Assembly (NCBI GenBank): GCA_021162935.1
Contig: JAGGXR010000102.1
Span: 1 to 45,736, forward strand
DNA length: 45,736 nucleotides
Source: Deltaproteobacteria bacterium
GTDB lineage: Bacteria > Myxococcota_A > Polyangia > HGW-17 > SLPX01
Direction: 5' to 3'
Within the stretch, counting starts at the first letter, position 1, and every line of letters begins with the position of its first letter. The translations under genes and the position numbers were made by a program. Shown here piece by piece: positions 1,448 to 18,260 of the stretch. The notes below the pieces were generated by a model. It made no database searches, had not been told where the DNA came from, and worked only from the letters and a program-made list of their open reading frames with translations.

Positions 1448-2311
1448 CTACCAAAACACGTGTCGTCGCTCCTTGAGGCCCAGGTGGATCATGGACTGGA
1501 TGGTGGAACGCACTTCGGCCACGAGCGGTGCGATCTCCTCGTCGTCCAGGTCCGGGTCCGCATCGATGGTCATGGGCGGCCCGAAGTAGAGTCGATACCG
1601 CACGGGCAATGGAACGATGGGCAAAAAAGGCGGAAACGGCACCACGGGGAACGCGGGCGCCCGGAACAGCTTGGCAAGGGGCTCCACGTTGAACGCCGGT
1701 GCCTGTTCTTCGGCGCCGATGACCGCCACCGGCACGATGGGACAACGACTCTCGAGGGCGAGCCGCATGAAACCATGCCCGAATTTTTGGAGCTGATATC
1801 GTTTCGAAAAGGGTTTCGAAATACCGCCAACGCCTTCGGGAAAAACCAGGACGACCTCTTCGTCGTCCAGGAGGCGGATGCAGTTTTCCGGAGTCCCTAC
1901 CACCTGCCCCCAACGGTTCAGGATGAAGCTGACGTATGGGAGGCTCGGGACGTAGCGCTCGATCATGGAGCGAGCCACCCGCGGCGGATCCATGTCGAAG
2001 AGCAACGAGCCGGTGATGACCATCCCGTCGAAAGGGAGCTGCCCCGAATGGTTCGCAATGAGCAGCACGCGCCCAGGAGGAATGTGCTCGGTGCCGTATG
2101 CCTGGGCCCGAAAGTAGTAGCGATACATATATTGGACCAGCAGGACCGCGATTTTTGCCTCATCGCGATTGAACCCGAACGAGTCGTAGCCGTATTCGTT
2201 CTGTCTTGTCGGTAGAGAGAGAAGTTTTTGGACGAATTCCGGATTGAGGCGTTCGTCCAGCCAGTCACGATATCGATGATGCAAAGGGGACAGGATCCGA
2301 TGCAGGAGCAT
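1448..2311 (-). CDS. 1-acyl-sn-glycerol-3-phosphate (lysophospholipid) acyltransferase, PlsC family
   Basis: Contains the acyltransferase H(x4)D box (NHSGQLPFD) and an FPEG motif. A GAGGAGG RBS lies 7 nt before the ATG at 2311. Sits directly upstream of the epimerase on the same strand, so it is probably an operon. Confidence 0.8.
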   Translation of the reverse strand: MLLHRILSPLHHRYRDWLDERLNPEFVQKLLSLPTRQNEYGYDSFGFNRDEAKIAVLLVQYMYRYYFRAQAYGTEHIPPGRVLLIANHSGQLPFDGMVITGSLLFDMDPPRVARSMIERYVPSLPYVSFILNRWGQVVGTPENCIRLLDDEEVVLVFPEGVGGISKPFSKRYQLQKFGHGFMRLALESRCPIVPVAVIGAEEQAPAFNVEPLAKLFRAPAFPVVPFPPFLPIVPLPVRYRLYFGPPMTIDADPDLDDEEIAPLVAEVRSTIQSMIHLGLKERRHVFW

Positions 2312-2323
2312 CTGGCCGCCTCC

Positions 2324-3712
2324 TCAACCCAATTGCTGACCACAGGATGGACAGAACTTCGATCCGGGCGCCACATGGACACCACACTTGGGACAGACGG
2401 TCTGCACGGCCCTCGGCGCTCCGCAGCTCGGGCAGAACTTGCTTCCGTCTGGAACCATGGCGCCGCATTTGGCGCAGGGCGTGCCGGACGGCAGTTGGAC
2501 CGGCTGGCCACAGGATGGACAGAATTTGAAGGAAGGCGGAACCGGATTGCCGCACTTGCTGCAGGTGATGGTGTCCGCCGCCACGGGGGCTGCTCCTGCC
2601 GCAGCGCCGGCTGCGGCTCCTGCTGCAGCGGCTCCCGGCGTCACCCCGGCTGGAGGCTGGGCGGTCGGGGCCTGGGGCGGGTAGCCCTGCTGCTGGGGCT
2701 GCCCCTGATAACCTGGCGGCATCTGGCCTGGCGGCATCTGGCCCGGCGGCATCTGGCCTGGCGGCATCTGGCCCGGCGGCATCTGGCCTGGCGGCATCTG
2801 GCCTGGCGGCATCTGGCCCGGCGGCATTTGGCCTGGCGGCATCTGGCCCGGCCGCATACCCGGCATGGCCCCAGCAACCATCCCAGGCATCATGAACCCC
2901 ATGCCGAGGCCCATTCCCATTCCCATTCCGGCGCCGGCCATGCCGCCAGCCCCTTCGTTTTGCGCCATATCCCGCATGGCGTAGGCCATCTGGTACTGCT
3001 GCATGCCACCGAGGTTCTCTTCGAACAGCCCCATTCCCGAACGTTCGTCGATCTTTGCCTGGACCTCTGGCGGCGGGGTGATGGCGTTGAGCACCAAATC
3101 TTCGAGTTCGACACCGTACTTGGCAAAGTCGTCGGCGACCCGCGCCTTGGTGGCGATACCCAGTTCGTCGTAAAGGGCGGCAAGATCCAGCAGGGTCTTG
3201 AGGTTTTCTCCAAGCACATCCGTCAGACGAGCCACCACGATGGAGCGAAGAAACTCGTTGAGTGTTTCGCCCGTATACGTCGCCTGGGTACCCACGACCT
3301 TGTTGACGAACAACTGCGGGTCGATGATCTTGAAACTCAAGATTCCAAAAGACCGCAACCGGACCACCTTCAAGACCTGATCCCGGAAGGTGATGGGTTC
3401 CTTGGTGCCCCACTTCTTATTCATAAAGGTCTTGGTGGAAACGAAGTAGACCTCTGCCTTAAAGGGGGTCTCGCCACCAAAGGGAAGCTTGATGAGTCGA
3501 TGGAGCAACGGCAGATTCGCCGTGCTCAGAGTGTGGCGTCCAGGCGGAAAGGTGTCGAGCGCCTGGCCGCCACGATAAAAGATGGCGACTTGGCTCTCGC
3601 GGACGACGAGCTGGGCGCCCAGCTTGATGTCCGCGTCGCCGGATTCAGGGAATCGTGTGACGATATTGTCGCCGGTTGCGTCCTGTACATCGATCACTTC
3701 AATGAGTGCCAT
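2324..3712 (-). CDS. SPFH/band-7 domain protein (YdjI-like), with a low-complexity linker and four C-terminal zinc ribbons
   Basis: The N-terminal ~250 aa resemble the SPFH family often annotated 'virion core protein' (e.g. B. subtilis YdjI). Then comes a Gly/Met-rich stretch, nine PGQMP repeats and an Ala/Gly-rich stretch. The C-terminus has four zinc-ribbon units (CSKCGNPV..FCPSCG, CAKCG..FCPSCG, CPKCG..FCPSCG). GAGGAG RBS before the ATG at 3712. Confidence 0.75.
   Translation of the reverse strand: MALIEVIDVQDATGDNIVTRFPESGDADIKLGAQLVVRESQVAIFYRGGQALDTFPPGRHTLSTANLPLLHRLIKLPFGGETPFKAEVYFVSTKTFMNKKWGTKEPITFRDQVLKVVRLRSFGILSFKIIDPQLFVNKVVGTQATYTGETLNEFLRSIVVARLTDVLGENLKTLLDLAALYDELGIATKARVADDFAKYGVELEDLVLNAITPPPEVQAKIDERSGMGLFEENLGGMQQYQMAYAMRDMAQNEGAGGMAGAGMGMGMGLGMGFMMPGMVAGAMPGMRPGQMPPGQMPPGQMPPGQMPPGQMPPGQMPPGQMPPGQMPPGQMPPGYQGQPQQQGYPPQAPTAQPPAGVTPGAAAAGAAAGAAAGAAPVAADTITCSKCGNPVPPSFKFCPSCGQPVQLPSGTPCAKCGAMVPDGSKFCPSCGAPRAVQTVCPKCGVHVAPGSKFCPSCGQQLG
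2715..2864. repeat. 15-bp perfect/near-perfect tandem repeat (GGCGGCATCTGGCCY, about 10 units) inside the SPFH gene, encoding (PGQMP)x9
   Basis: Units at 2715-2729, 2730-2744 ... 2835-2849, then a degenerate unit. Alternating T/C at the last position. In frame. Confidence 0.9.
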
Positions 3713-4983: not shown

Positions 4984-5028
4984 ACTGCACGAAAAGGAGT
5001 GTGTCGTGGATTGCCGAGGAGAATCGTG

Positions 5029-6498
5029 ATGCGTCGTATGCCATCTATTCGCTTGTTTGCCATCTTGTTCGCCCTGACCTTCGGGGCCTGTTCGACAGGT
5101 CCCGATTACGAGACCCTGCAGCAGGGCCTGAGCGTCTGCGCTGACGGCGACGTGCTGTACGGAATCGATGTGTCCCACTGGCAGGGCGTGGTCGACTGGG
5201 ACCGCGTGGCGGCCGATGGAGTGACGTTCGCGTTCATGCGGGTGAGTGACGGGACGCGCGTCCTGGACAGCCAGTTCTCCAGGAATTGGTCCGAGACCCG
5301 CCGCGTCGGAATCATTCGTGGGGCCTATCAGTTTTTCCGTCCCAAGCAGGACCCTGAAGGTCAGGCCGATGTGCTCATCGACGCCCTGGGCGGCACAGTC
5401 ACTCCGGGCGACCTTCCTCCCGTGATCGACGTAGAGGTTTCGGATGGCCTATCCCGCTCCACGGTGACGACTCGGATCCAGCGATGGGTGGATCGGGTGG
5501 AATCGCGTCTGCACGTGGCCCCAATCGTGTATACGAGTCCTGGTTTATGGTCATCGATTTCCGGAAGCGACGACTTTGAAAATCTGGCTCTCTGGGTCGC
5601 TCATTACCGAGTGACCTGTCCAAGGATGCCATGGCCCTGGACGCAATGGGCATTCCACCAGTACTCGGACCGGGAATCAGTGAACGGAATTTCGGGCAAA
5701 GTGGACGGCGACAAGTTCAACGGGACCCTGGCGGACCTCCAGGCCCTGACCGGAGCCTCGTTCGAGTGCGGAAACGGAGACTGCGAAGCGGGTGAGTCAG
5801 CCACGACCTGTCCCGATGACTGCTCTCCCTGCGCAACGATTCCAGAGGATGGTCGGATCGTCGATGAAACCGATGCCTGTTTCGAACCAGGCGGCGACCC
5901 GCGCTGGCTCCGCAGCGAAAATTCCGGCTGGAACGACAATCTGCTTTGGACCCATGCTGTGTCGTCCAAGTGCTACAACTACGGAGTTTGGCACCTGCGA
6001 ATGCGTCAGACAGCTCGCTATCGAGTCGAGGTGTACCTGGCTGCTCCTTGGGGGGAAACCCGGCATGCAAAGTACCAGATCCGACATGCAGGCGTGACCG
6101 ACGTGGTCGAAATGGATCAGACGGCCTACGATGGATGGGCCACCTTGGGTGAATTCGACTTCGCCATCGGAGGTGGACAGTGGGTGCGGCTCGAAGATCT
6201 CACCGGCGAATCGCTCAGTGACGAGCTTCGGGTCGTCTTCGATGCGGTGCGCCTCACTTACATGGGGCCTGCTCAGTCCGGATACGGGGGCGTGGGGGAT
6301 AATCAGCAACTCGATCCGGACCAGGATCGTGCAGCCGGTGCTGGCGTAGACGACGGCGCAGGCGACGGTCAATTCGTCGGGGGTTGCTCCATGGCATCGT
6401 CCCAACCATCCCGTCTTCCCCTGGGAATTCTCATCGCCCTGGCATTGGGCCTGGCATGGAGTCGGAGGCGCGGCAACGGGGAACGCCGATATCGATAG
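5029..6498 (+). CDS. secreted GH25 muramidase (lysozyme) with a C-terminal beta-rich domain and a MYXO-CTERM sorting signal
   Basis: GH25 signature GIDVSHWQG..DW..V...GVTFAFMRVSDG. N-terminal signal/lipobox (LTFGACS). The C-terminus GGCSMASS...LGILIALALGLAWSRRRGNGERRYR* has a Gly-Cys patch, TM helix and Arg cluster, matching a MYXO-CTERM tail. GAGGAG RBS 7 nt before the ATG at 5029. The track start at 4999 is a GTG. Confidence 0.8.
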   Translation: MRRMPSIRLFAILFALTFGACSTGPDYETLQQGLSVCADGDVLYGIDVSHWQGVVDWDRVAADGVTFAFMRVSDGTRVLDSQFSRNWSETRRVGIIRGAYQFFRPKQDPEGQADVLIDALGGTVTPGDLPPVIDVEVSDGLSRSTVTTRIQRWVDRVESRLHVAPIVYTSPGLWSSISGSDDFENLALWVAHYRVTCPRMPWPWTQWAFHQYSDRESVNGISGKVDGDKFNGTLADLQALTGASFECGNGDCEAGESATTCPDDCSPCATIPEDGRIVDETDACFEPGGDPRWLRSENSGWNDNLLWTHAVSSKCYNYGVWHLRMRQTARYRVEVYLAAPWGETRHAKYQIRHAGVTDVVEMDQTAYDGWATLGEFDFAIGGGQWVRLEDLTGESLSDELRVVFDAVRLTYMGPAQSGYGGVGDNQQLDPDQDRAAGAGVDDGAGDGQFVGGCSMASSQPSRLPLGILIALALGLAWSRRRGNGERRYR

Positions 6499-6597
6499 TC
6501 GGCCTGCTGCAGAGACGATCGCTGGTGGGGAATTTCAGTGGTTATGCCCGCTGATGCTCGAGTGGTCCTTCCTTGTTCTTTGGGGAAAGGTGAACCA

Positions 6598-8943
6598 ATG
6601 TCGACATTCGAGAAAGCCGCGTTCGATGTGGATTGGGCCGTGCGACACAGAATACGGCGAAACCGATTCGCTGGTGGGATGATTCTGGTCGGTGGGCTTC
6701 TGTCGACCCTCGGGATTTGGGTCGGTTGTGGCGGCGGTGGGCACCATGCCGAAACCTGCGGACCCGACACCTGTGCTCAAGGCTGTTGCCGAGACGGGGA
6801 ATGCACGTCGTCGTCGGATCAGACCTGCGGGGTTTCCGGACAGGCCTGTCAGGACTGCACTGCCATCGACGAAACCGACACATGTGACCAGGGCGCATGT
6901 ATCTGTCGCGCGGCCGGGCAGTCCTGTGATCCTGGAGAAATTTGTCTCGCGACGGGCTGCTCCAACTGCCATCCGGATTGCGCAGACAAATGCGTCGGGG
7001 CGGACGACGGCTGCAACGGCACGTGCCAGATCAACGATTGTGCGGGCTGCTGCAACGACCAACACCAATGCGTAAGCTCAGCGAATCAAACAGCGTCCCA
7101 ATGCGGAACCGGCGGGGAATCCTGTGCCGACTGCACATCGTCCGACAGGACCGATGTCTGCAATCAGGGAACCTGTGTCTGCCAGGCGACCGGGCAGTCC
7201 TGTCCATCCGGTCAGAACTGCACCCAGACGGGCTGCTCCAACTGCCATCCCGATTGCTCCGAGAAATGTGCCGGTGCAAACGACGGATGCGGCGGATCCT
7301 GCCAGGACAGCGACTGCAGCGGATGCTGTGACGCAAACGCCCAATGCGTGGCCGTAGCCCAACAGTCGGACGCGGCCTGTGGTCTGTCGGCGGAGACCTG
7401 TCGGGATTGCCGCACCGGGGACTGGAGTTGCAACGCCGGACGGTGTTTGTCCGTTCGGGACCGGGACGCCGCGTTCCTGTCCGAAGTGGTGCCGGCGTCC
7501 GTATCGCTCGGCGGCCAGTTTCAGGTGACCGTCACAATGCGGAACGTGGGTAGGGACACCTGGACGGCGGCGGACCAGTATCGTCTGGGTGCCCAGCGGC
7601 CTCAGGACAATGCGACGTGGGGGCTGAGCCGCGTCGAACTGAGTGCAGCGGAATCCATTGCCACCGGGCAGGACAAGACCTTTTCCTTCTCTGTGACCGC
7701 GCCGTCGAGCCCAGGTTTTTACGACTTCGAGTGGCGGATGCTCAAGGAGGGAGTGGCCTGGTTCGGTCAACGTTCCGAACCGCTGCGCATCTACGTAGGC
7801 ACGGAGCAGGTGGAGGTCTGTGAGGCCGCCCGGGCCTTGGCCAACCAACAGACGGACGCGTCGTCCACTATTCAGGCCTGCATCGATGCAGCCCCTGCGG
7901 GCGCCTTCGTGGAGTTGCCGGCAGGGCGCTATCAGTTGGACCACCAAATTCTGATTGCATCCCATCCCGTGACCTTCAGGACCGAGCAGACCACGCTGTT
8001 CGATCCACCTTGTGACACCAGCGGAACGGGCTGCGCCGTACTCGTGGCATCCGCCTCGTTTGCGGACACATTGGGCGTCCTGCGAGTCCTCCAAAATGGA
8101 GCAGCCCTGGATCACATCGTGGTGGACGGCAACAAATCGGGTCGGTCCCAGACTGCCTCTGCGCAACATTGCGCTTCGTACGACAACCAGTACGGCTACA
8201 ACATCCAGATGGTCTGTGACGACTGCAGCCTCACCAACAGCGTCACGCAAAACGCCCTGTGCGGAACAGGCTGCGAGGTGTCCGGGGTGCGGCACAACGT
8301 CCTCGTCTGGCGCAACACGATTGCGTCCAACGGTGTGCACGATCACGAAGGTATGTGGTCCGACGGCCTGACGGTGCACGATGGCCGACAATCGGTGTTC
8401 TGCGAAAACCGAATCATGGACAATACGGACGTAGACCTGATCTTCGGAGGCTGCGTGGATTGCGAGATCCGCGACAACGTCTTGTCCCATTCGACCGCGT
8501 TCGCATCCAGCTCCTTTGCCGCGGTGATGCTCCATGCGTGGCCAGATGGAAACGGCGGAAACGGCACAAGCGGTGACTACACGGGCACGGACACCGTCGG
8601 AAACATCATCGACTGCGGGACGCAGCATCGCTGCGGCATTGGGCTCTACCTGGGATCCGACGCCTGGTACATCACCGACGTGCACAGCGGCACCGTATTC
8701 GGCAACGTGGTGGACCGTGCCCAGCAGGGCCTGCTCATCGACGATGTCCATGACATGATCGTGTTCGACAACGTGGTGGCGCACCCAGCCCAGACATCCA
8801 CAGCTTCCTGTGGCACCAAGGCCACGAACGCATACGGCATCGGCACGAGATCGCACAACGTGGATTTTTCGCAGGATCGTTTTGGCACCCAGTACACCTC
8901 AGTGGACTGGGACGGTTGCATCCCGAACTGGTGGAATCCGTAG
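6598..8943 (+). CDS. secreted multidomain protein: two tandem Cys-rich modules, an NBR1-like Ig domain, and a right-handed parallel beta-helix (pectate-lyase-like fold)
   Basis: N-terminal signal anchor (GGMILVGGLLSTLGIWVGCGGG). Two ~110-aa repeats of a Cys pattern (CGxxGxxCxxC...GCSNCHPDCxxKCxGAxDGCxGxCQ..DC.GCC). An NBR1-like segment (GQFQVTVTMRNVGRDTW....FYDFEWRMLKEGVAWFG). A C-terminal region with the periodic small-residue/Asn ladder expected of a beta-helix (NVLVWRNTIASNGVHDHEG.., DNTDVDLIFGGCVDCEIRDNVL.., GNVVDRAQQGLLIDDVHDMIVFDNVV). AAGGTG RBS before the ATG at 6598. Confidence 0.65.
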   Translation: MSTFEKAAFDVDWAVRHRIRRNRFAGGMILVGGLLSTLGIWVGCGGGGHHAETCGPDTCAQGCCRDGECTSSSDQTCGVSGQACQDCTAIDETDTCDQGACICRAAGQSCDPGEICLATGCSNCHPDCADKCVGADDGCNGTCQINDCAGCCNDQHQCVSSANQTASQCGTGGESCADCTSSDRTDVCNQGTCVCQATGQSCPSGQNCTQTGCSNCHPDCSEKCAGANDGCGGSCQDSDCSGCCDANAQCVAVAQQSDAACGLSAETCRDCRTGDWSCNAGRCLSVRDRDAAFLSEVVPASVSLGGQFQVTVTMRNVGRDTWTAADQYRLGAQRPQDNATWGLSRVELSAAESIATGQDKTFSFSVTAPSSPGFYDFEWRMLKEGVAWFGQRSEPLRIYVGTEQVEVCEAARALANQQTDASSTIQACIDAAPAGAFVELPAGRYQLDHQILIASHPVTFRTEQTTLFDPPCDTSGTGCAVLVASASFADTLGVLRVLQNGAALDHIVVDGNKSGRSQTASAQHCASYDNQYGYNIQMVCDDCSLTNSVTQNALCGTGCEVSGVRHNVLVWRNTIASNGVHDHEGMWSDGLTVHDGRQSVFCENRIMDNTDVDLIFGGCVDCEIRDNVLSHSTAFASSSFAAVMLHAWPDGNGGNGTSGDYTGTDTVGNIIDCGTQHRCGIGLYLGSDAWYITDVHSGTVFGNVVDRAQQGLLIDDVHDMIVFDNVVAHPAQTSTASCGTKATNAYGIGTRSHNVDFSQDRFGTQYTSVDWDGCIPNWWNP

Positions 8944-10318: not shown

Positions 10319-11794
10319 ATGGATGTCATGGTGAGCCTTCGTTTTCATTGCGTCCGTTTCCTTCGACCAGGTCGAGATACGCCCCGGTGGCAGTCGACCG
10401 TCTTGGCATGTGTGACCCTGGTGGCGCTATCCATCGCTGGCGGCTGCGGCACTGGCCATGGATTTTCGTACGATGGTGATCCGGGCCAGGCCGAGCAGGC
10501 GACCCTGGTTGCCTGGGCACCGGCGGTCGAGGCCATGATCGTGCCGCCGAGCGATGCGTCGCCCATCCAGGGCCTGTTCCTCCTGGACACGGGGTCGCCC
10601 GTTTCAGCGGTGGACCTGGGCTTCCTCGCATCGCAAGGGCTGGACACGGGAATCGGATCGGACCCACGGCTCCTGTCCGGATACGAAATCGATGCTTTCG
10701 GCCTCCACTTCTTTAATCGGAGGCTGGTTGCCGCAGCCTTGTTCAGCCCGTCGCAGCCTCTCGACGGCATCATCGGAGCCGACATCCTGGATCATTTCTG
10801 CTTGGCCCTGGACGACCAGGCACACACGGTGACCTTGGCCCGAACGAGCGACGACGTTGCCGCCGCGTCTCCGGTGGCAGATTCCCGATCCGTTTCCTTG
10901 GAGGTGGCTGGCGGCGGAATCATGATCCTGCCAGGTGACGTGCGTCTGTCGGTTCCCGCCACCAGACTGCTCGTAGACGTGATGGTCGAGGGCCGTACCG
11001 TGACCGCCGTGGTGGACACGGGTGCCTCGGCGGTGCTGCTGGGCCCGGACCTGGCAAAGGACCTCATGACCGACGACCCGACACGACCCAGGCTCGACGG
11101 CCTGGAGGTGGACACGGCAGATGGTCTGGCAGACGCATCCATGATTCGGGTGGCGTCCCTGTCCGTGGGCACGTCGGTCGCTCATTCGCTGCCCTGCATG
11201 GTGGTACAAGACGCCGTGGCGTTCCAGTCGCTCGAAGCAGAACTGGGGCGCCCTGTGTCCCTGCTCCTCGGAGACACGTTCCTGCGGGAATTTTTCGTGG
11301 CCCTGGACATTCCAAGACAAACAATGCTGCTGGCGCGATATCAGAGCATGACGCATCTCGACCCAAGAGAGTTCGTCTTCGTGGGCCTCTCTCTTCGGGC
11401 GTCGGGCAATGAGGTGGTGGTGGACCATGTGTATCCTGGCAAAGACGCCGAAGCCAAGGGCGTGCGCAGTGGAGACGTGGTGATGGCCATCGACGACAAC
11501 ACGGTCACCTCCGTCGAGCGGGCTATGGATTTGGTACGTGCCCATGACGTCGGGCAGACCGCGGCGTTTCGATTCGAGCGGAACCGGGCCACGTTCAACG
11601 CGGACCTCTTGGTCGAAGACTTGCTGCCTGCCTACCCAGCCCAAAAGTCCACACCGAATCGCGGCGATCTGGATGCCGACGCCCATGATGGAGGCTCCCT
11701 TTGGTGGCAACAGCACAGACTGGGTGGTTTGGTCAACGTGCTCGGCCCATTTGGCCTGCCACCGCTCGTGCGATCGGGGAGCGCTCGGCCATGA
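10319..11794 (+). CDS. secreted pepsin/retropepsin-like aspartic protease with a C-terminal PDZ domain
   Basis: Two DTG-type active-site motifs (LFLLDTGSPVSAVDLG and VTAVVDTGASAVLLGPDLA) give a bilobed aspartyl protease. The C-terminal PDZ-like segment is GVRSGDVVMAIDDNTVTSVERAMDLVRA..GQTAAFRFERN. N-terminal signal/lipobox-like peptide (LACVTLVALSIAGGCG). The stop overlaps the next gene's start (ATGA). Confidence 0.6.
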   Translation: MDVMVSLRFHCVRFLRPGRDTPRWQSTVLACVTLVALSIAGGCGTGHGFSYDGDPGQAEQATLVAWAPAVEAMIVPPSDASPIQGLFLLDTGSPVSAVDLGFLASQGLDTGIGSDPRLLSGYEIDAFGLHFFNRRLVAAALFSPSQPLDGIIGADILDHFCLALDDQAHTVTLARTSDDVAAASPVADSRSVSLEVAGGGIMILPGDVRLSVPATRLLVDVMVEGRTVTAVVDTGASAVLLGPDLAKDLMTDDPTRPRLDGLEVDTADGLADASMIRVASLSVGTSVAHSLPCMVVQDAVAFQSLEAELGRPVSLLLGDTFLREFFVALDIPRQTMLLARYQSMTHLDPREFVFVGLSLRASGNEVVVDHVYPGKDAEAKGVRSGDVVMAIDDNTVTSVERAMDLVRAHDVGQTAAFRFERNRATFNADLLVEDLLPAYPAQKSTPNRGDLDADAHDGGSLWWQQHRLGGLVNVLGPFGLPPLVRSGSARP

Positions 11795-13815
11795 GGCATT
11801 CTGTATCGCATCGCCTCACGCTCCTCGCCTCGCTGGTCGTGCTGTTCGTGGCAGGGCAGGCAGAAGCCCAAATCGTGTATCAGCAGGTTTACAAGCCCCA
11901 GCCGGCCAGACAGGCAAAGCCGCGCAAGGGCGCAAGGGCAGCAAAGGGGCGGAAACCGAGACGCGGGGGCAAGGGCGCCAAGGCGGGCAACGCATCAAGG
12001 CCTGGCCAGGGCACCAAGGGTGCAAACGCGGCCAAACCACAGCCGCGGGGAAAGCCTGGCCAGGACACCAAGGGTGCAAACGCGGCCAAACCACAGCCGC
12101 AGGGAAAGCCTGGCCGGGGCACCAAGGGTGCAAACGCGGCCAAACCACGGACGAGCGCTGGAACCAGGGCACAGACCAATGGAAAGGTGCCGCTCAAGGG
12201 CCATGGGCCCGGATGGAAACGATCCTGGACCATGCCTTGGAGCCACGCCAAGACAAGGCCTGCCGGGCAAGCTGCCGGTGCCGGCGGCAGCGTGGGCGAA
12301 AGAGGCGGGACGAAAACTGGTTCTGGTATCCATGGCGCACCTGGTTCGCAGGGCTCGTCGGACGGATCCGGAGGAACCGGCACCAAAGCAGCAGACGCGA
12401 CCGCGTCGAAGAAAATCCTGCGGGTCTGGAAGGTGACGGTCATTGGAGTCACCAAAACCTCGAAGGAAACGGTGCGGGCGATGTCGGAGATCCATCGGGG
12501 CGATCTCATCACGCCCGAATACGTGGATCGCGTGCGCAAACGACTCATCAACACGAAGGTGTTTCGCAAGGTGTCCATTCTGTGGGAAGAAATCCCGAAC
12601 CGTCCCGGCTGGGCAGCAATCTTTTTGGAATGCAAGGACCGATGGTCCTGGTTCATCGCCCCCATGTTCACCTGGCAGCAGGGTCGATGGGGCGGCGCGT
12701 TGGCGTACGGAGAGGCAAACCTCTTTGGATGGGGTAAACGGCTTGGAGTGGCTGGTGCGTACCTGACCGATTCCCAATATCTTGGGGTCGGGTACCAGGA
12801 CCCGAGTATCCACGGGTCGCGATTCGTGCTGAAGGTGGGCCTCGGATTCAAACGCCAGCTCTTCAAGGAGTACCTGCGGATTTTGGGCAAACCTCTGCAC
12901 GATGCCCAGTCGATTCGGTCCCTGTGGGTCCAGCAGCTTTCGGCGACCATGACCCTGGGCTACAAGTGGTGGGGAAAACTGGAGACCAGGATCGGATACA
13001 AATTCGCCCTGGTCGCCTTCAACCACCCCAAGTGTCCGTTCCAAACGGGACCAGACGGCCAGACGGGAGACTGCGCCACCCCATGGGACGAGTACGGCGG
13101 CTCCTACAGCGGCCCCATCGTATTTCGACAAAAAGACGGAACGTATCTGGACCATACCTATGCGAAGGGAAAATTCTGGCGGTATCGACGTGAGGGAATC
13201 GTCCAGCTCGGCATCGGATACAGCACGGTTTTGGACCTGTTCGGCATCAAGCAAGGATGGTCAGTGGGATTCAAGATGGACATCTCCCACCCGCACCTTG
13301 GCTCCCAGTTCCAGTACGTCAAGTGGTCGGTTTCCGGATACAAGGCATTTCGGTTCTTCAAAAGCCACGTGCTGGAACTGTTCGCCAAGCACGAAGAGGC
13401 CTATGGGGCGCCCTATCATCGAGAGCTGTACATGGGCGGCAGCTACCTACCAGGCTACGTGTACCGGCAGGCGCTGGGAGACATGGACACGTCGGTCAAG
13501 GCGGCCTATTCGGTCCCCTTGTTTCACGTGTGGTGGTTTTCGTTCCGGCAGGTGTTCTACTACCGGTTCGCATGGATCTTCTTTCGTGACGGTGGCAAGA
13601 AACGGCCCTACTACGAAGAACACAACGGCGTGCGTCGCTATCACCTCGCCTTCGAGCCCGGACCCAAGGACCGAGCCTCTTTCCTGGAGAGCATCGGCAC
13701 GGGGCTGCGGCTGCACGTCAAGGCAGTGGCCATGCCACTTTTGGGCGTGGACGTGGCCTACGGATTCGAAGCCAATGCCGTGCGGTTCTATTTCTACGTC
13801 GGGAAGAACTACTGA
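11791..13815 (+). CDS. Omp85/BamA-family outer-membrane beta-barrel protein with one POTRA-like domain and a Lys/Pro/Gly-rich repetitive N-terminal region
   Basis: Signal peptide MRHSVSHRLTLLASLVVLFVAGQAEAQ. A ~200-aa basic low-complexity region containing a 54-bp tandem repeat. A POTRA-like segment (ILRVWKVTVIGVTKTSKETVRAMSEIHRGDLITPEYVDRVRKRLINTKVFRKVSILWEE). A long C-terminal region of alternating aromatic/hydrophobic beta-strands ending ...RFYFYVGKNY. Translationally coupled to the flanking genes (ATGA at 11791, TGATG at 13813). Confidence 0.5.
   Translation: MRHSVSHRLTLLASLVVLFVAGQAEAQIVYQQVYKPQPARQAKPRKGARAAKGRKPRRGGKGAKAGNASRPGQGTKGANAAKPQPRGKPGQDTKGANAAKPQPQGKPGRGTKGANAAKPRTSAGTRAQTNGKVPLKGHGPGWKRSWTMPWSHAKTRPAGQAAGAGGSVGERGGTKTGSGIHGAPGSQGSSDGSGGTGTKAADATASKKILRVWKVTVIGVTKTSKETVRAMSEIHRGDLITPEYVDRVRKRLINTKVFRKVSILWEEIPNRPGWAAIFLECKDRWSWFIAPMFTWQQGRWGGALAYGEANLFGWGKRLGVAGAYLTDSQYLGVGYQDPSIHGSRFVLKVGLGFKRQLFKEYLRILGKPLHDAQSIRSLWVQQLSATMTLGYKWWGKLETRIGYKFALVAFNHPKCPFQTGPDGQTGDCATPWDEYGGSYSGPIVFRQKDGTYLDHTYAKGKFWRYRREGIVQLGIGYSTVLDLFGIKQGWSVGFKMDISHPHLGSQFQYVKWSVSGYKAFRFFKSHVLELFAKHEEAYGAPYHRELYMGGSYLPGYVYRQALGDMDTSVKAAYSVPLFHVWWFSFRQVFYYRFAWIFFRDGGKKRPYYEEHNGVRRYHLAFEPGPKDRASFLESIGTGLRLHVKAVAMPLLGVDVAYGFEANAVRFYFYVGKNY
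12001..12162. repeat. 54-bp tandem repeat (about 2.8 copies) encoding PGQGTKGANAAKPQPRGK units
   Basis: Units at 12001-12054, 12055-12108 and 12109-~12150 are near-identical. It is in frame (18 aa per unit) inside the Omp85-like gene. Confidence 0.85.
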
Positions 13816-15359
13816 TGGGCGATGACCGAAAGCAGTGGCGGTCGATGGAGGCGAAGAACGGTATGACGGTGCATGATCGGATGGTGATCGTGATTGCGGT
13901 GGCCTTGCTGTCCGATCTGGTCCCAGGCCCTGCCTGGGCCCAAAATTCCGCACGGGGACGCATGTGGACCGAAGCCCTCAAAGGAGCCGCCCTGGCCGCC
14001 GACGGAAAACTCGACCAGGCCTGTGTACGGCTCGACCGGGCCCGCCGATGGAAGAACGACGTGGCGGTGCGTGCGGCGCTGGCTCTCTGCCACCTTGCAG
14101 CAGGTCGGCCGACGACAGCAAGGCTCATGCTGGAAAAGCTCGCACGGACCGCGGGCGAACTCCCTGCTGTCCAGTACTGGCTCGCTCGCCTATTGGCGCG
14201 ACGATCTCCCGTTCGCGCCTGCCACGCCATGAACGCCGCCTTGAGTTTGGGAGGAGACCTGCCTCGGTACCTGGTGGGCAAGGCTCTGCTCTGTCGATCC
14301 GTGTCCCATGCGGCCGCGGTGGACAGCCTGGCATTGGCGGCCTCGAAGACGTGGGACATCATGGATCCCAGGCTCTATCCCGACCCGGTGGCCGGGCTGA
14401 TCGACATGGTGGACCAAGCGCTTCGGACCTTTCCCAACAAACAGCAGGTCCTGCTCACCCTGGCCCATCTGTATGTCACGGCGCATCGTTTGTCGTCCGC
14501 CGAAGCCACGGCGCGCCGGGTGATCGCCACCTGGGGCCACGTGCACGAGGCCTATTTCGTGCTCGCCCGCGCTCGATATCTTGCAGGCGATTACAAGGCA
14601 GCGGCGACCTGGGTCGAACGGACCCTGGGCAGCGACCCTTCCGATCCGCAGGCTTTGGCATTGCGGGCGGCCCTGTCCATCCGAGAGGGAAAGATCGTCC
14701 GAGCCCGTTCCGACCTGGAGCGTTCCGTTCGCGCTGATCCCACCGATGCAGTGAACCTCGCGCGCCTCGGACATCTGTACTGGAAGACGGGCGCCTACCC
14801 CCGCGCAGAAAAAATGTTTCGTTACAGTTTGGCCAGAATGCCGTCGCTCGCTACGGCCCACCACGGTCTCGCCCTGGCCCTTGCCCGCCGTCGTAAGTTC
14901 GTCGAGGCTGAGCGCCAGCATCGACTCGCCATTGCCGGAAATCCGGTCAATGCTTTGTATCGCCGTGGCTATGCGCAGTTTCTCCAACAGCGAGGCAAGG
15001 CGGCAGCAGCACGCCAACTCGCGGTGGCCAAGTCTCTGGAACGACAGTATGCGCGTTTCGCCAAAACAGTAATGCTTGCCCAGGCCTATCGACGCCAGGT
15101 ACTCGCGCTCCATGGTGGTCGCGTGGTTCGTTCGTGGCGAGGACCTGCAGCACCAAGGTTCTTCATCCTGGCCGGAATTACCAAAACCCAGTCGGATCGC
15201 CGCCGGAAGGCAGCCCGAGCCCTATCCGGGCTGAAGGCACGGAAACTGCTCGGCCTGGATTCGGTAGTCGTGTTGCAGCATTCGGGCCGCCTGCGTGGCG
15301 GTCCATCGTTTCTGTACCGCCAGTACCTCGACTTCGTCCGCCCCTCACTGCTTCGCTGA
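13815..15359 (+). CDS. TPR-repeat protein with an N-terminal signal peptide (periplasmic?)
   Basis: Multiple TPR-like helical repeats (..AYFVLARARYLAGDYKAAATWVERTLGSDPSDPQALALRAA.., ..NLARLGHLYWKTGAYPRAEKMFRYSL..). Signal-like MVIVIAVALLSDLVPGPAWAQ follows an internal ATG at 13863, which is an alternative start. The start overlaps the stop of the Omp85-like gene. Confidence 0.6.
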   Translation: MGDDRKQWRSMEAKNGMTVHDRMVIVIAVALLSDLVPGPAWAQNSARGRMWTEALKGAALAADGKLDQACVRLDRARRWKNDVAVRAALALCHLAAGRPTTARLMLEKLARTAGELPAVQYWLARLLARRSPVRACHAMNAALSLGGDLPRYLVGKALLCRSVSHAAAVDSLALAASKTWDIMDPRLYPDPVAGLIDMVDQALRTFPNKQQVLLTLAHLYVTAHRLSSAEATARRVIATWGHVHEAYFVLARARYLAGDYKAAATWVERTLGSDPSDPQALALRAALSIREGKIVRARSDLERSVRADPTDAVNLARLGHLYWKTGAYPRAEKMFRYSLARMPSLATAHHGLALALARRRKFVEAERQHRLAIAGNPVNALYRRGYAQFLQQRGKAAAARQLAVAKSLERQYARFAKTVMLAQAYRRQVLALHGGRVVRSWRGPAAPRFFILAGITKTQSDRRRKAARALSGLKARKLLGLDSVVVLQHSGRLRGGPSFLYRQYLDFVRPSLLR

Positions 15360-16283
15360 ATCCAAAGGAGACGTCCGGGGGCGCCCGGCGATCCAAAACA
15401 CCCGCGTCGCAGCCGACTCGTCATCGATGAAGGCATCGATTCGGTAGATCCCCGGGCAGTATCCCAGAGCCGGCCTTGGCAAGGTAAATGTGTAGCGACG
15501 ACTCTGCTTGAGAACCAACGACGGACTTTCTGCGAAAAAATGGAACGCCCCGTCCACGCCCGCGCGTTTCCACACGATTCGGAGGTGCTTGCCCGCCAAT
15601 GGATTGAGCACCTCGACACGACAGGAAACGGGCGCCGTCGTCCCCATCGAAACCGGCCATGCTTCGCTGCCGCATTGGATGCGGTACTCGGTCTTCGCAG
15701 ACACCTCGAATCGGACCTTGGCCACCACCTTGCCATCGAGGGTGGTGATCACCTCGTAGTGACCCGATGGCCAGGGACCTCGGCGACGCGTGGCTCCGAA
15801 CGTAACCCGGCCGGTTCCATCCACCACCTTGAGTCCAGTACGGAACAGCCAGGGCTTCCCATGTTTTTGCTTGGCTTCTCTTTTTGTCTGCTGTGTCCGT
15901 TTCATTTTGGGGAATGCGTTGGCTGCCAGGGGGCGCTTGTCCAGGAAATACCACCGGACACGCACCTCAGACTCAGGCTCGAGATTTTCGTAGACGACTG
16001 CCGTGACGAGCCGGTCCTGCAGCGGACTGAACGTGGCAACGACGAGGCCGAGAGTCTTGGTTTGCGGATCAAAGGATCCGTGCATCGTCACGGATCGGAT
16101 CCGACCAGGCTCCAAGTTGCAATGGCACCGAAAACCGAACCCGCCGGTCCATGCCAAGACGACCAAGAGGACCTCCATGAACACCGTGGTGCAGAGCGGA
16201 TTCGACAGCCGCCGAAAATGTGGAAGGCCGGGGCTCGTCCCGCGCTGGATGCATGGTCTTCGTTGTTCCAATGGTTCGTTCAT
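15345..16283 (-). CDS. hypothetical secreted protein
   Basis: A 312-aa ORF with an N-terminal hydrophobic segment (MEVLLVVLAWTGG, alternative ATG at 16178). No recognised family. Its 3' end overlaps the TPR gene by 15 nt (convergent). Confidence 0.35.
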   Translation of the reverse strand: MNEPLEQRRPCIQRGTSPGLPHFRRLSNPLCTTVFMEVLLVVLAWTGGFGFRCHCNLEPGRIRSVTMHGSFDPQTKTLGLVVATFSPLQDRLVTAVVYENLEPESEVRVRWYFLDKRPLAANAFPKMKRTQQTKREAKQKHGKPWLFRTGLKVVDGTGRVTFGATRRRGPWPSGHYEVITTLDGKVVAKVRFEVSAKTEYRIQCGSEAWPVSMGTTAPVSCRVEVLNPLAGKHLRIVWKRAGVDGAFHFFAESPSLVLKQSRRYTFTLPRPALGYCPGIYRIDAFIDDESAATRVFWIAGRPRTSPLDSAKQ

Positions 16284-16499: not shown

Positions 16500-18260
16500 A
16501 TGTTGCGTCACGAAACGCATCGTCGATGGAATTTGTTGTTGGGACTGCTGACGGCTTGCGGAGTCATCGTAGCTTCGGGCTGTGACCTTGGAGTCGTTGC
16601 GCTCCACAAGGGCGGCGATGGCAGCACCACCCAAGATGGTGGTCCGATCATTGATGGCGGATTGAATGATGGTTCGTTGCTGGACGCGGCGATTGTCGCC
16701 TGCGACAAAAACGAGGATTGCGACGACAGCAATGCCTGCACCACCGAGTCCTGTGGCGACGATTCGATCTGTCACTATTCGCCTGTTTCTTGCGACGATT
16801 CGGATGGCTGCACCAAGGACATCTGTGACCCGGATGCCGGCTGCCACCACGAGGACGCCTGCGACACGAACGCCGTCTGCGTGGACTCCGCCTGTCAATG
16901 CAACCATGGCTTTTCCGGTGATGGAACCACATGTCAGGACATCGACGAATGCGCCACGAGTCAGGCGGGCTGTGACGCCCATGCCACGTGTGCGAACACC
17001 GAGGGGAGTTTCACCTGCACCTGCAACGACGGCTGGCACGGCGACGGGTTTACCTGCAGCCAGACGCTTTGTGCCGATGGAATCTGCGAAGAGGGGGAGA
17101 ACGTGGCGTCCTGCCCCCAAGACTGCGACTACGACCTGGTGGTCCTGGTGGAACAGAGCCTTTCATCCTCGCTCAACAGTGCGCTCCAGCGGTACGTAAG
17201 CGACACGGCGACAGCGAATTGGAAAGTGCGCATCGAGACCTGGTCCGGTGGGGACGTGGGTGCGCTCAAGAATCTCATCCATCAACAGTTCGATGACTAT
17301 GCGATCGAAGGAGCCTGGCTCATTGGGAACTTGCCGGCCGCCTGGTACGAACGCACGTCCTTTGAATCGCCCGAAGAGTTTCCCACAGATATCTTCCTCG
17401 AAACCATGGACGCCACATGGACCGACCAAGACAACGACGGAAAGTACGATGCCCACGGGGATCTCGTGCTGGACATCTACACGTCTCGGCTCATCACGGG
17501 ATCGGCGGCCGAATATCAGGCCTATTTCGACAAGGATCACGACTATCGAACGAACGGATCCCTGGCCAGGAAGGCAGCGTTTCTGTTCTTCGATGACGAC
17601 TGGTCGAGTAACGCGAACACCTTCGGCCTCGATGGTCTCTACGGCACCATCGACATGCTGTCCGACACGAGCGAGACCACGAAGGCCGCCTACATCAGCG
17701 AAATGACTGGTCCTGGAGCAGAGTTCGTGTACCAGTGGATCCATGCGACCCCTACGTTCATGCGTGTGAGCGGAACCGGTGGCGGCGATATCCGCGTGTC
17801 GGACATTGCGGCAGGCAACTACCAAGGGTCCTTTTTCGATCTGTTCGATTGTTCCGCGTCGCGATTTACCGGCACGAATCTGGCGAGTACGTATCTGCTC
17901 AAGACCGATGATGGGTTGGCGACCGTCGGGACCACTAAAATCGGAGGCATGTACTCTCCATCTCATTTCTTCGACCCGTTGGTACAGGGTCATCCTTGGG
18001 GCGAAGCTTTCTTGACCTGGTACAACCAGACGGGCAGACTGAGTGATGAATGGCACCTCGGAATGATGATCCAGGGGGACCCCCTGCTCACCATCGACAA
18101 GGACCCGAATGCGCCGTCCGTGCCCACGACTCCGCAGGTCTGGACCCTGGATCAACTCCAACACCTCCGGCGCATCATGGTGCGCCATGCGGCGCAGGCA
18201 CAACTGGACAGCTTTGATGACTACCAGGCCGACCATCCCGAGTTCTTTCCTCGATACTGA
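16500..18260 (+). CDS. lipoprotein with EGF-like/calcium-binding-EGF-like Cys modules and a ~400-aa C-terminal domain of unknown function (possibly a clan-CD-like peptidase fold)
   Basis: Lipoprotein signal LLGLLTACG (lipobox LTAC). EGF-like module DIDECATSQAGCDAHATCANTEGSFTCTCNDGWHGDGFTC plus further Cys modules. GGAGG RBS. The C-terminal domain contains ..IHATPTFMRVSGTGGG.. and ..FFDLFDCSASRFTG.. about 45 aa apart. Confidence 0.6.
   Translation: MLRHETHRRWNLLLGLLTACGVIVASGCDLGVVALHKGGDGSTTQDGGPIIDGGLNDGSLLDAAIVACDKNEDCDDSNACTTESCGDDSICHYSPVSCDDSDGCTKDICDPDAGCHHEDACDTNAVCVDSACQCNHGFSGDGTTCQDIDECATSQAGCDAHATCANTEGSFTCTCNDGWHGDGFTCSQTLCADGICEEGENVASCPQDCDYDLVVLVEQSLSSSLNSALQRYVSDTATANWKVRIETWSGGDVGALKNLIHQQFDDYAIEGAWLIGNLPAAWYERTSFESPEEFPTDIFLETMDATWTDQDNDGKYDAHGDLVLDIYTSRLITGSAAEYQAYFDKDHDYRTNGSLARKAAFLFFDDDWSSNANTFGLDGLYGTIDMLSDTSETTKAAYISEMTGPGAEFVYQWIHATPTFMRVSGTGGGDIRVSDIAAGNYQGSFFDLFDCSASRFTGTNLASTYLLKTDDGLATVGTTKIGGMYSPSHFFDPLVQGHPWGEAFLTWYNQTGRLSDEWHLGMMIQGDPLLTIDKDPNAPSVPTTPQVWTLDQLQHLRRIMVRHAAQAQLDSFDDYQADHPEFFPRY

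Follow-up and report, generated by a model that had tools for sequence, protein, structure and literature searches.

Paralogues of BamA that combine an Omp85 barrel with one to three POTRA domains are present in bacteria in addition to BamA, have been proposed to act as assembly factors and have diversified in myxobacteria (PMC4104836, Heinz & Lithgow 2014). Here, we analyzed a 45,736-nt stretch of DNA from a Deltaproteobacteria bacterium (contig JAGGXR010000102.1, positions 1 to 45,736; the whole stretch is hereafter the window), in which the gene for a BamA-like Omp85 protein (P2) lies directly behind a gene for a two-lobed aspartic protease with a PDZ domain (P1) and is followed by genes for a TPR protein (P3) and a further conserved protein (P4). 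These four genes are referred to as the module, and the related loci as L001 to L021. The module is made of familiar parts in a conserved combination that is new to the literature and, so far, known from no more than a few uncultured Myxococcota-like genomes. Full-text literature searches retrieved no paper that connects Omp85 proteins with aspartic proteases or describes the module or its architecture, which agrees with an earlier reading of the DNA from its letters alone (the sequence-only reading), where the first three genes were not recognized as any named system. The four genes are laid out as follows.

10319..11794, + strand: open reading frame (ORF) of P1, 491 amino acids, a predicted lipoprotein with a single-chain, two-lobed aspartic protease and a C-terminal PDZ domain
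11791..13815, + strand: ORF of P2, 674 amino acids, a BamA-like Omp85 protein (PF01103)
13815..15359, + strand: ORF of P3, 514 amino acids, a predicted secreted TPR protein (TPR Pfam families)
15345..16178, - strand: ORF of P4, about 277 amino acids, a conserved convergent gene (tblastn conservation beside the TPR gene)

The tight packing of the three + strand ORFs and both of their stop/start overlaps, as described in the sequence-only reading, are present: the stop codon of P1 and the start codon of P2 overlap in ATGA (11791-11794), and those of P2 and P3 in TGATG (13813-13817). For P1, the ATG at 10328, which is the gene caller's choice for an identical JGI protein (P0001), is a likelier start than 10319. 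P3 may start at the ATG at 13863 in place of the overlapping ATG at 13815, because a GGAGG lies 11 nt upstream of it and a normal signal peptide results; under either start, the spacing between P2 and P3 is below 50 nt. P4 runs convergently, its 3′ end overlapping that of P3 by 15 nt. A scan for promoters and terminators returned signals at chance level only, and an Rfam search of the window gave no match.

The protease is the best defined part of the module, and its features are listed here.

10445..10447, + strand: TGC codon of Cys43, putative lipid-attachment site following a hydrophobic signal segment (..VALSIAGG, then C)
10481..10858, + strand: lobe 1, retropepsin-like, residues ~55-180, with D90-T91-G92 at 10586-10594
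10859..11353, + strand: lobe 2, retropepsin-like, residues ~181-345, with D233-T234-G235 at 11015-11023
11366..11620, + strand: PDZ domain, residues ~350-434, in which the (V/I)-G-(F/L) motif of the carboxylate-binding loop is intact
11639..11791, + strand: C-terminal disordered tail of ~50 amino acids, with a predicted local distance difference test score (pLDDT) of ~30, present in the closest relatives only

Lobe 2 matches the Pfam family Asp_protease_2 (PF13650; residues 219-318, E 3.3e-14, 53.8 bits vs. a cutoff of 24.3), and this match, together with the D-T/S-G motifs, places P1 among the retropepsin-like proteases of clan AA. The N-terminal half appears to be a second, more divergent copy of the same domain. 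When a profile built from an alignment of ten homologues was compared with the PDB, lobe 1 matched HIV-1 protease (profile positions 42-129) and lobe 2 matched Ddi1; moreover, hhalign aligned the two lobes with each other at a probability of 96.5% (E 8.7e-10), with the DTG and (I/L)IGxD/T..L..F motifs in register. These alignments suggest that the lobes arose by internal duplication of a retropepsin-like domain. Across the ten homologues D90-T91-G92, D233 and G235 are invariant and T234 is near-invariant, and exactly two D[TS]G[AS] motifs occur in 128 of the 141 full-length family members. The AlphaFold model of P1 (mean pLDDT 80, core above 90) superposes on pepsins at a root-mean-square deviation of ~3 Å, and in this superposition the two catalytic Asp residues would face each other in one cleft. 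P1 is therefore best described, as far as model and alignments go, as pepsin-like in shape and retropepsin-like in sequence. The more specific models stay below their cutoffs, with 13.6 bits vs. 19.9 for PF00026 (pepsin family A1) and 40.3 vs. 57.95 for TIGR02281 (PerP-type clan AA DTGA protease). The PDZ domain was assigned by PDZ_2 (PF13180; residues 355-430, E 5e-10, 39.9 bits vs. a cutoff of 27), and its sequence matches are to the envelope quality-control proteases DegP, DegQ, CtpA and RseP; the best in the PDB are the PDZ domains of DegP/DegQ and CtpA (DegP PDZ1, E 6e-8; CtpA, 1e-6). Both the bilobed aspartic protease fold with two DTG motifs and the PDZ domain had been proposed from the letters, and the Pfam matches, the lobe-to-lobe alignment and the confident model uphold them.

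The same reading had taken the protease to be secreted, and here the evidence points elsewhere. Because Cys43 (LSIAGG-C43) is near-invariant among the aligned homologues and follows a hydrophobic segment, and because relatives carry canonical lipoboxes (e.g., LAAC-G and LLGC-G), P1 is predicted to be a lipid-anchored lipoprotein rather than an enzyme released in free form; 118 of the 141 family members have a lipobox-like Cys. At the other end of the chain, the tail motif WWxQ(H/Q)R(L/I)GxLGPV is common to P1 and its counterparts in L005 and L006 only, being absent from the nine other aligned homologues, and outside these three loci the chain ends a few residues past VEDLLPxYP.

The combination of protease and PDZ domain, which the sequence-only reading had called unusual, is borne out, but its rarity is not. 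HMMER, run exhaustively against 1.84 billion representatives, found at least 334 family proteins or sequence clusters at E ≤ 1e-30, almost all of them unnamed metagenomic sequences, and most of the 150 best-listed matches to the protease profile cover nearly its full length. A solved precedent probably exists as well: the closest known is an exported 'putative endopeptidase' of Bacteroides fragilis (PDB 9IY9), and a weaker likeness is seen to the Parabacteroides 'PDZ domain protein' BDI_1242 (PDB 4L8N). Neither is more than 13-14% identical to P1 in sequence, and 9IY9 falls outside the 60 best profile-search matches; our literature search found no paper on it. One family member (P0156, 802 amino acids) has the whole protease-PDZ unit duplicated in tandem, and no fusion of protease and Omp85 protein was seen among the unusually long family matches.

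Among better known aspartic proteases, those of pepsin family A1 (pepsin, plasmepsins, BACE1 and polyporopepsin) are strongly similar to P1 in fold, whereas their sequence score is below cutoff. Unlike in pepsins, the lobes of P1 are still recognizably homologous to each other and to retropepsins, and P1 has a lipid anchor and a PDZ domain; judging from these sequence relationships, P1 looks like a duplication of a retropepsin-like domain separate from that of pepsins. The bacterial retropepsin-like enzymes APRc of Rickettsia, the PerP-type TIGR02281 proteases of Caulobacter and RimB/RloA of Pseudomonas are single-domain proteins that dimerize, in contrast to the two domains of P1 in one chain, and they are not known to have a PDZ domain or an Omp85 partner.

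The second protein of the module is divided into four segments.

11791..11868, + strand: signal peptide (ending ..FVAGQAEA, with the mature protein beginning QIVYQQVY), from the alignment and from upstream extension of the ORF in L005, L006 and L010
11869..12420, + strand: disordered arm, residues 27-210, 184 amino acids, isoelectric point 12, pLDDT 23-33
12421..12639, + strand: single POTRA domain, residues 211-283, beta-alpha-alpha-beta-beta in the secondary structure of the AlphaFold2 model
12685..13812, + strand: Omp85 beta-barrel, residues ~299-674 (PF01103)

The C-terminal 363 residues of P2 match PF01103 over profile positions 1-323 of 325 (E 5.6e-8, 33.1 bits vs. a cutoff of 24), and the family was matched in all nine relatives of P2 (best E 4.5e-13). 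The NCBI annotation of the identical protein goes no further than 'BamA/TamA family outer membrane protein'. The Pfam POTRA model stays below its cutoff on P2 (residues 212-261, 16.6 bits vs. 21.3) and matches five of the nine members; in the AlphaFold2 model, a beta-alpha-alpha-beta-beta unit is formed by residues 211-283 (pLDDT 65-83), and everything N-terminal of it is disordered. As a whole, however, the model is poor (mean pLDDT 47), so the 16 strands that DSSP counts in it, the number that the sequence-only reading had set as a check, are tentative, as is the closest subfamily. A Foldseek search with the model returned BamA (1.8e-14) and TamA (1e-10) as best matches, with poor global superposition (TM-scores 0.26-0.41), and the profile of the P2 family found no sequence match in the PDB. 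Taking family profiles and model together, we accept P2 as an Omp85 family member with exactly one POTRA domain, both of which the sequence-only reading had named. The conserved motif in loop 6 (L6) of Omp85 proteins is (V/I/L)-R-G-(F/Y). P2 departs from it with LPGY (window 13435-13458, residues ~549-556); the window and its closer relatives (clade A, below) have L-P-G-Y, L-Q-G-Y or L-P-G-F, and the distant barrel protein of L001 retains L-R-G-Y. A pair of cysteines, Cys415 and Cys428, is invariant within a long, poorly modeled loop of the barrel.

Between the signal peptide and the POTRA domain lies the arm, which had been described as Lys/Pro-rich, basic and TonB-linker-like. Its composition (20% Lys plus Arg, 20% Gly, 16% Ala and 9% Pro) supports the basic half of the first description and makes it Gly/Lys/Ala-rich, with Pro a minor part; likewise, a basic, TonB-like character holds in this genome and not across the family, where arms of 133-199 amino acids range in net charge from +37 to -16. 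The arm of P2 contains a recent tandem repeat of 54 nt in 2.8 copies with 95% matches (12000-12148, Tandem Repeats Finder), and relatives have unrelated, lineage-specific repeats such as KDKDKDES, RKGAKPS, REKPREEP and KKDAD. What is conserved lies around the arm: the signal peptide and a mature N-terminus of the form Q-I-x-[SY]-x-R-[WV]-Y on one side and, in most members, PW..KYGTHLPW motifs directly before the POTRA domain on the other; the arm of P2 includes a conserved 'MPW' motif. Cyanobacterial Omp85 proteins also have a low-complexity, proline-rich N-terminal region, which is unexplained (PMC2878562). That region differs in being Pro/Ala/Glu-rich, negatively charged and mostly shorter, whereas the arms described here are mostly basic, with lineage-specific repeats between conserved end motifs.

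Two ideas about the arm were rejected. Short gene calls in L005 and L006 skip it, as if it were untranslated; these calls have no signal peptide, the frame is open upstream and is the sole frame that gives one, and open frame, signal peptide and N-terminal motif are retained in eight loci. GC content by codon position did not discriminate the reading frame of the arm. Maturation or cleavage of the arm by the protease was discarded as well, since the protease-barrel pair of clade B has no arm and L014 and L015 have an arm and no adjacent protease. In L010 (positions 1617-3585), the arm is a 187-amino-acid ORF of its own, out of frame with the POTRA domain and barrel; the shift may come from an assembly error in an A-rich run, or the gene may be a pseudogene or genuinely split.

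P3 is matched by TPR_19 (E 3e-21) and other TPR families, as the sequence-only reading had it, and begins with a signal peptide (..VPGPAWA, followed by QN) without a lipobox Cys; these features predict a secreted, periplasmic TPR protein. Its profile retrieves generic TPR proteins from the PDB, including LbcA (PA4667, ~3e-15), with O-GlcNAc transferase, Cdc27 and designed TPR proteins scoring higher. TPR_Slam gave a faint match to P3 (E 0.076, 13.9 bits vs. a cutoff of 35.2) and to an orthologue. P4 opens with a signal segment, and F-[RK]-C-x-C lies where the mature protein is predicted to begin; in the alignment, a beta-rich module is repeated, one copy ending in WPxGxYE and the other in YCxGxYR. 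Searches of Pfam, NCBIfam and the PDB with P4 gave no match. Since a P4 homologue adjoins the TPR gene in L005, L006, L008, L009, L010, L014 and L015 (tblastn), P4 belongs to the module as a fourth gene beyond the triad of the sequence-only reading.

Scans for related loci with the Omp85 alignment yielded two loci in GTDB and one in JGI, and a third homologue search, also run with an alignment, yielded three further proteins. The loci fall into two main clades. Within clade A, the Omp85 proteins are 45-63% identical to P2, and the arm-bearing Omp85 gene is followed by the TPR gene and the convergent P4 gene in all informative loci, a P3 orthologue being present behind the Omp85 gene in eight of eight. 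The full order of protease, Omp85 and TPR genes, and with it the synteny expected of the triad, is found in the window and in L005, L006, L008, L009 and L010. In clade B, the proteases are 32-35% and the Omp85 proteins 25-29% identical to those of the window; L001 and L016 have the protease gene, an Omp85 gene without an arm and a gene for a cytoplasmic amidohydrolase, with no TPR gene, and L017-L019 are short contigs that end inside the Omp85 gene. The amidohydrolase was discarded as a component of the system, as it has no signal peptide. Thus, the arm, the TPR protein and P4 occur together, all in clade A and none in clade B, and appear from this distribution to travel with the clade-A barrel. 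In the window, L001, L005, L006, L008, L009, L010 and L016, the protease and Omp85 genes overlap in ATGA, GTGA or TGATG or lie 2-3 nt apart; in other words, coupling by overlap or by a gap of at most 3 nt is seen in every locus in which the two genes are adjacent, across two clades whose Omp85 proteins differ as much as stated above. Only the four module genes are common to the window and its related loci, and the flanking genes differ completely.

The most distant protease relatives offer an observation of their own. In L002 (8001-15391) and L003 (1014-8404), a protease with 31% identity to P1 (P0007) is encoded beside a MATCAP-like peptidase and a RimK-type ATP-grasp enzyme, and a third neighbor is a 1268-amino-acid protein with TPR, DUF3857 and transglutaminase-core domains. 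The rloABC operon of Pseudomonas encodes the retropepsin-like RloA, the inactive transglutaminase RloB and the ATP-grasp protein RloC (PMC12239564). Because the neighborhood of P0007 is the same combination, it is conceivable by analogy that some two-lobed members of the family act on polyglutamylated substrates.

Compared with described envelope systems, the module appears from its sequence to lack the defining features of BamA, TamA/TamB, TpsB/TpsA, PlpD, Slam and BepA. P2 resembles the BamA-like Omp85 group in its barrel with a POTRA number of one to three and in its divergence from BamA and TamA, and fits this loosely defined group. BamA has five POTRA domains vs. one in P2, and P2 reaches only 39.9 of the 297.15 bits that TIGR03303 requires; TamA has three and a TamB partner, and no TamB-like ORF was found among the ORFs scanned between 4999 and 22904. 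The L6 motif, the N-terminal arm and the coupled protease gene further set P2 apart from both. Two-partner secretion (type Vb) uses a TpsB barrel of the ShlB type with POTRA_2 and a cargo with a TPS domain, whereas P1 is a predicted lipoprotein, and neither PF03865, PF08479 nor the TPS domain matched P1 or P2 at E ≤ 1. In PlpD-type (type Vd) proteins the enzyme is fused to POTRA domain and barrel, whereas here protease and barrel are separate ORFs in all loci. Slam combines a DUF560 barrel with N-terminal TPRs in one protein, in contrast to the PF01103 barrel and separate TPR protein of the module. Envelope proteases with TPR modules are known at or near the outer membrane, namely BepA at BAM, NlpI-Prc and LbcA-CtpA, and the PDZ domains of Prc and CtpA read C-terminal tails. 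BepA is, however, an M48 protease and Prc and CtpA are S41 proteases, whereas P1 is of the aspartic type; the TPRs of BepA are fused to the protease and those of NlpI and LbcA reside in lipoproteins, whereas P3 is separate, non-lipidated and 514 amino acids long. The BepA model NF052400 reaches only 18.8 bits on P3 against a cutoff of 570, in its TPR part alone.

The sequence-only reading had suggested a dedicated outer-membrane export or processing machine, which is a hypothesis at this stage. We tentatively favor, at a probability of about 40%, the explanation that the module specifies a BAM-like outer-membrane complex built around a BamA-like Omp85 barrel, with the PDZ protease as a lipoprotein subunit, by analogy with BAM and its lipoprotein and TPR partners. 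P1 would sit beside the POTRA domain of P2, anchored in the inner leaflet of the outer membrane, where its PDZ domain could take hold of the barrel's client proteins by their C-terminal tails. The PDZ domains of DegS, DegP and Prc read the C-termini of outer-membrane proteins. The aspartic site of P1 would then process or remove these clients, in parallel to BepA at BAM, and the arm with its conserved end motifs, the TPR protein and P4 would form a clade-specific accessory set, whose probable role is to bring in clients or to hold the complex in place across the periplasm. The proposal draws on the predicted folds and domains, the lipobox Cys, the conserved junctions and the persistence of four genes amid differing flanks, and further on the likeness of the PDZ domain to those of quality-control proteases, the co-occurrence of arm, TPR protein and P4, and the literature on BamA-like paralogues (PMC4104836).

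Several observations weigh against such a complex. The model of the barrel is poor, as given above. In L6, Pro replaces the Arg that is usual there, so the barrel may differ from BamA in how it works. Moreover, the pairing of protease and barrel, though it appears frequent, ancient and tightly coupled, is not obligatory, and the sequence-only reading holds in this respect only in part. In clade A, L014 and L015 have Omp85 and TPR genes without an adjacent protease gene, and the barrel gene is abutted there by the same upstream neighbors as are found in L008; in L020 and L021 of clade B, the protease gene is followed by the same amidohydrolase gene as in L001 and L016, with the barrel absent; and in L002/L003 and L004, the protease gene lies in unrelated contexts with no barrel.

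The main competing explanation, which we consider unlikely but weightier than the others, is surface display, in which the Omp85 barrel would serve to bring the protease, as a lipoprotein, to the surface of the cell. The system could then be a split form of PlpD (patatin-Omp85, type Vd) or an Omp85 counterpart of two-partner secretion or of Slam-dependent surface lipoproteins, with P3 as periplasmic receptor or chaperone. The predicted lipidation of P1 and the position of its gene upstream of the barrel gene, with conserved coupling, are what such a system would show. In two-partner secretion and Slam systems, cargo genes typically lie next to those of their transporters, which also speaks for display. 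Omp85 proteins with hydrolase passengers are known, both in PlpD and in the 'Metallo' Omp85 group (PMC4104836), and the faint TPR_Slam matches to P3 and its orthologue point the same way, but these are far under the cutoff, the TpsB-type families POTRA_2 and ShlB are missing, as is a TPS domain in P1, and protease without barrel and barrel without adjacent protease both occur. To our knowledge, PDZ proteases known so far are periplasmic, which also counts against display. Somewhat less likely again is the complete form of this scenario, in which the barrel, with its arm as a periplasm-spanning disordered 'fishing line', the TPR protein as receptor and P4 would deliver a lipoprotein protease of pepsin-like shape to the cell surface in predatory or degradative Myxococcota; if true, it would add a type V-like or Slam-like branch of secretion that handles lipoproteins.

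It is more doubtful still that P3 serves as a substrate adaptor for P1, as in NlpI-Prc and LbcA-CtpA. Under this explanation, the pair would degrade periplasmic targets, e.g., cell-wall hydrolases, with the Omp85 protein only a membrane anchor or itself a target. The matches of the TPR profile to LbcA and of the P1 PDZ domain to CtpA would suit an adaptor and its protease, as would the single tight gene cluster, and an effect on cell shape and on tolerance of envelope stress is known for the secreted retropepsin-like RloA proteases of Pseudomonas (PMC12239564). However, the TPR similarity is of a generic kind, with O-GlcNAc transferase, Cdc27 and designed TPR proteins scoring higher than LbcA, and the lipobox of NlpI and LbcA is missing from P3. 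Above all, the distribution of the genes suits an adaptor poorly, since the TPR gene goes with the arm-bearing barrel rather than with the protease: in clade B, protease and barrel occur without TPR gene, and L014 and L015 have Omp85 and TPR genes without protease. Finally, that the genes are chance envelope-gene neighbors, conserved only through genome relatedness, might be argued from the few known loci, all in related uncultured Myxococcota-like genomes, and from each pairing being broken in some of them, but this is very improbable because overlapping stop and start codons are retained at 25-35% protein identity and the four genes stay together while the flanks in the window and the other loci are unrelated.

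If the proteins of the module do act together, an aspartic protease would for the first time be a dedicated subunit or cargo of an Omp85-family machine, and the known roles of BamA paralogues would be widened. P1 itself, as a bacterial retropepsin-like domain that appears to have been duplicated and fused into a pepsin-like enzyme, bears on the origin of two-lobed aspartic proteases. The arm, in turn, provides a concrete case of a disordered N-terminal linker of an Omp85 protein with conserved end motifs, of which the cyanobacterial counterpart has been unexplained since 2010.

The remainder of the window is ordinary chromosome, with genes for PheRS subunits, CheA, a PrkA/DUF444 pair and a major facilitator superfamily transporter. 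Near the module, positions 16500-18260 (+ strand) encode a Cys-rich secreted protein with EGF-like repeats and a Peptidase_C25 (gingipain-like) domain, and positions 6538-8943 (+ strand) a secreted protein whose N-terminal half is rich in Cys and which also has an Ig-like domain and a NosD-like beta-helix; positions 4999-6498 encode a GH25 lysozyme that carries a Golvesin_C domain. In three clade-A loci, a PQQ_2 beta-propeller protein of ~815-832 amino acids is encoded one to two genes beyond P4 (L008, 13113-15563; L010, 6165-8612; L014, 8058-10556), PQQ_2 being the Pfam family that matches BamB. An OmpA-family protein is encoded further on in L010 and L014, whereas the window has neither the PQQ_2 nor the OmpA gene.

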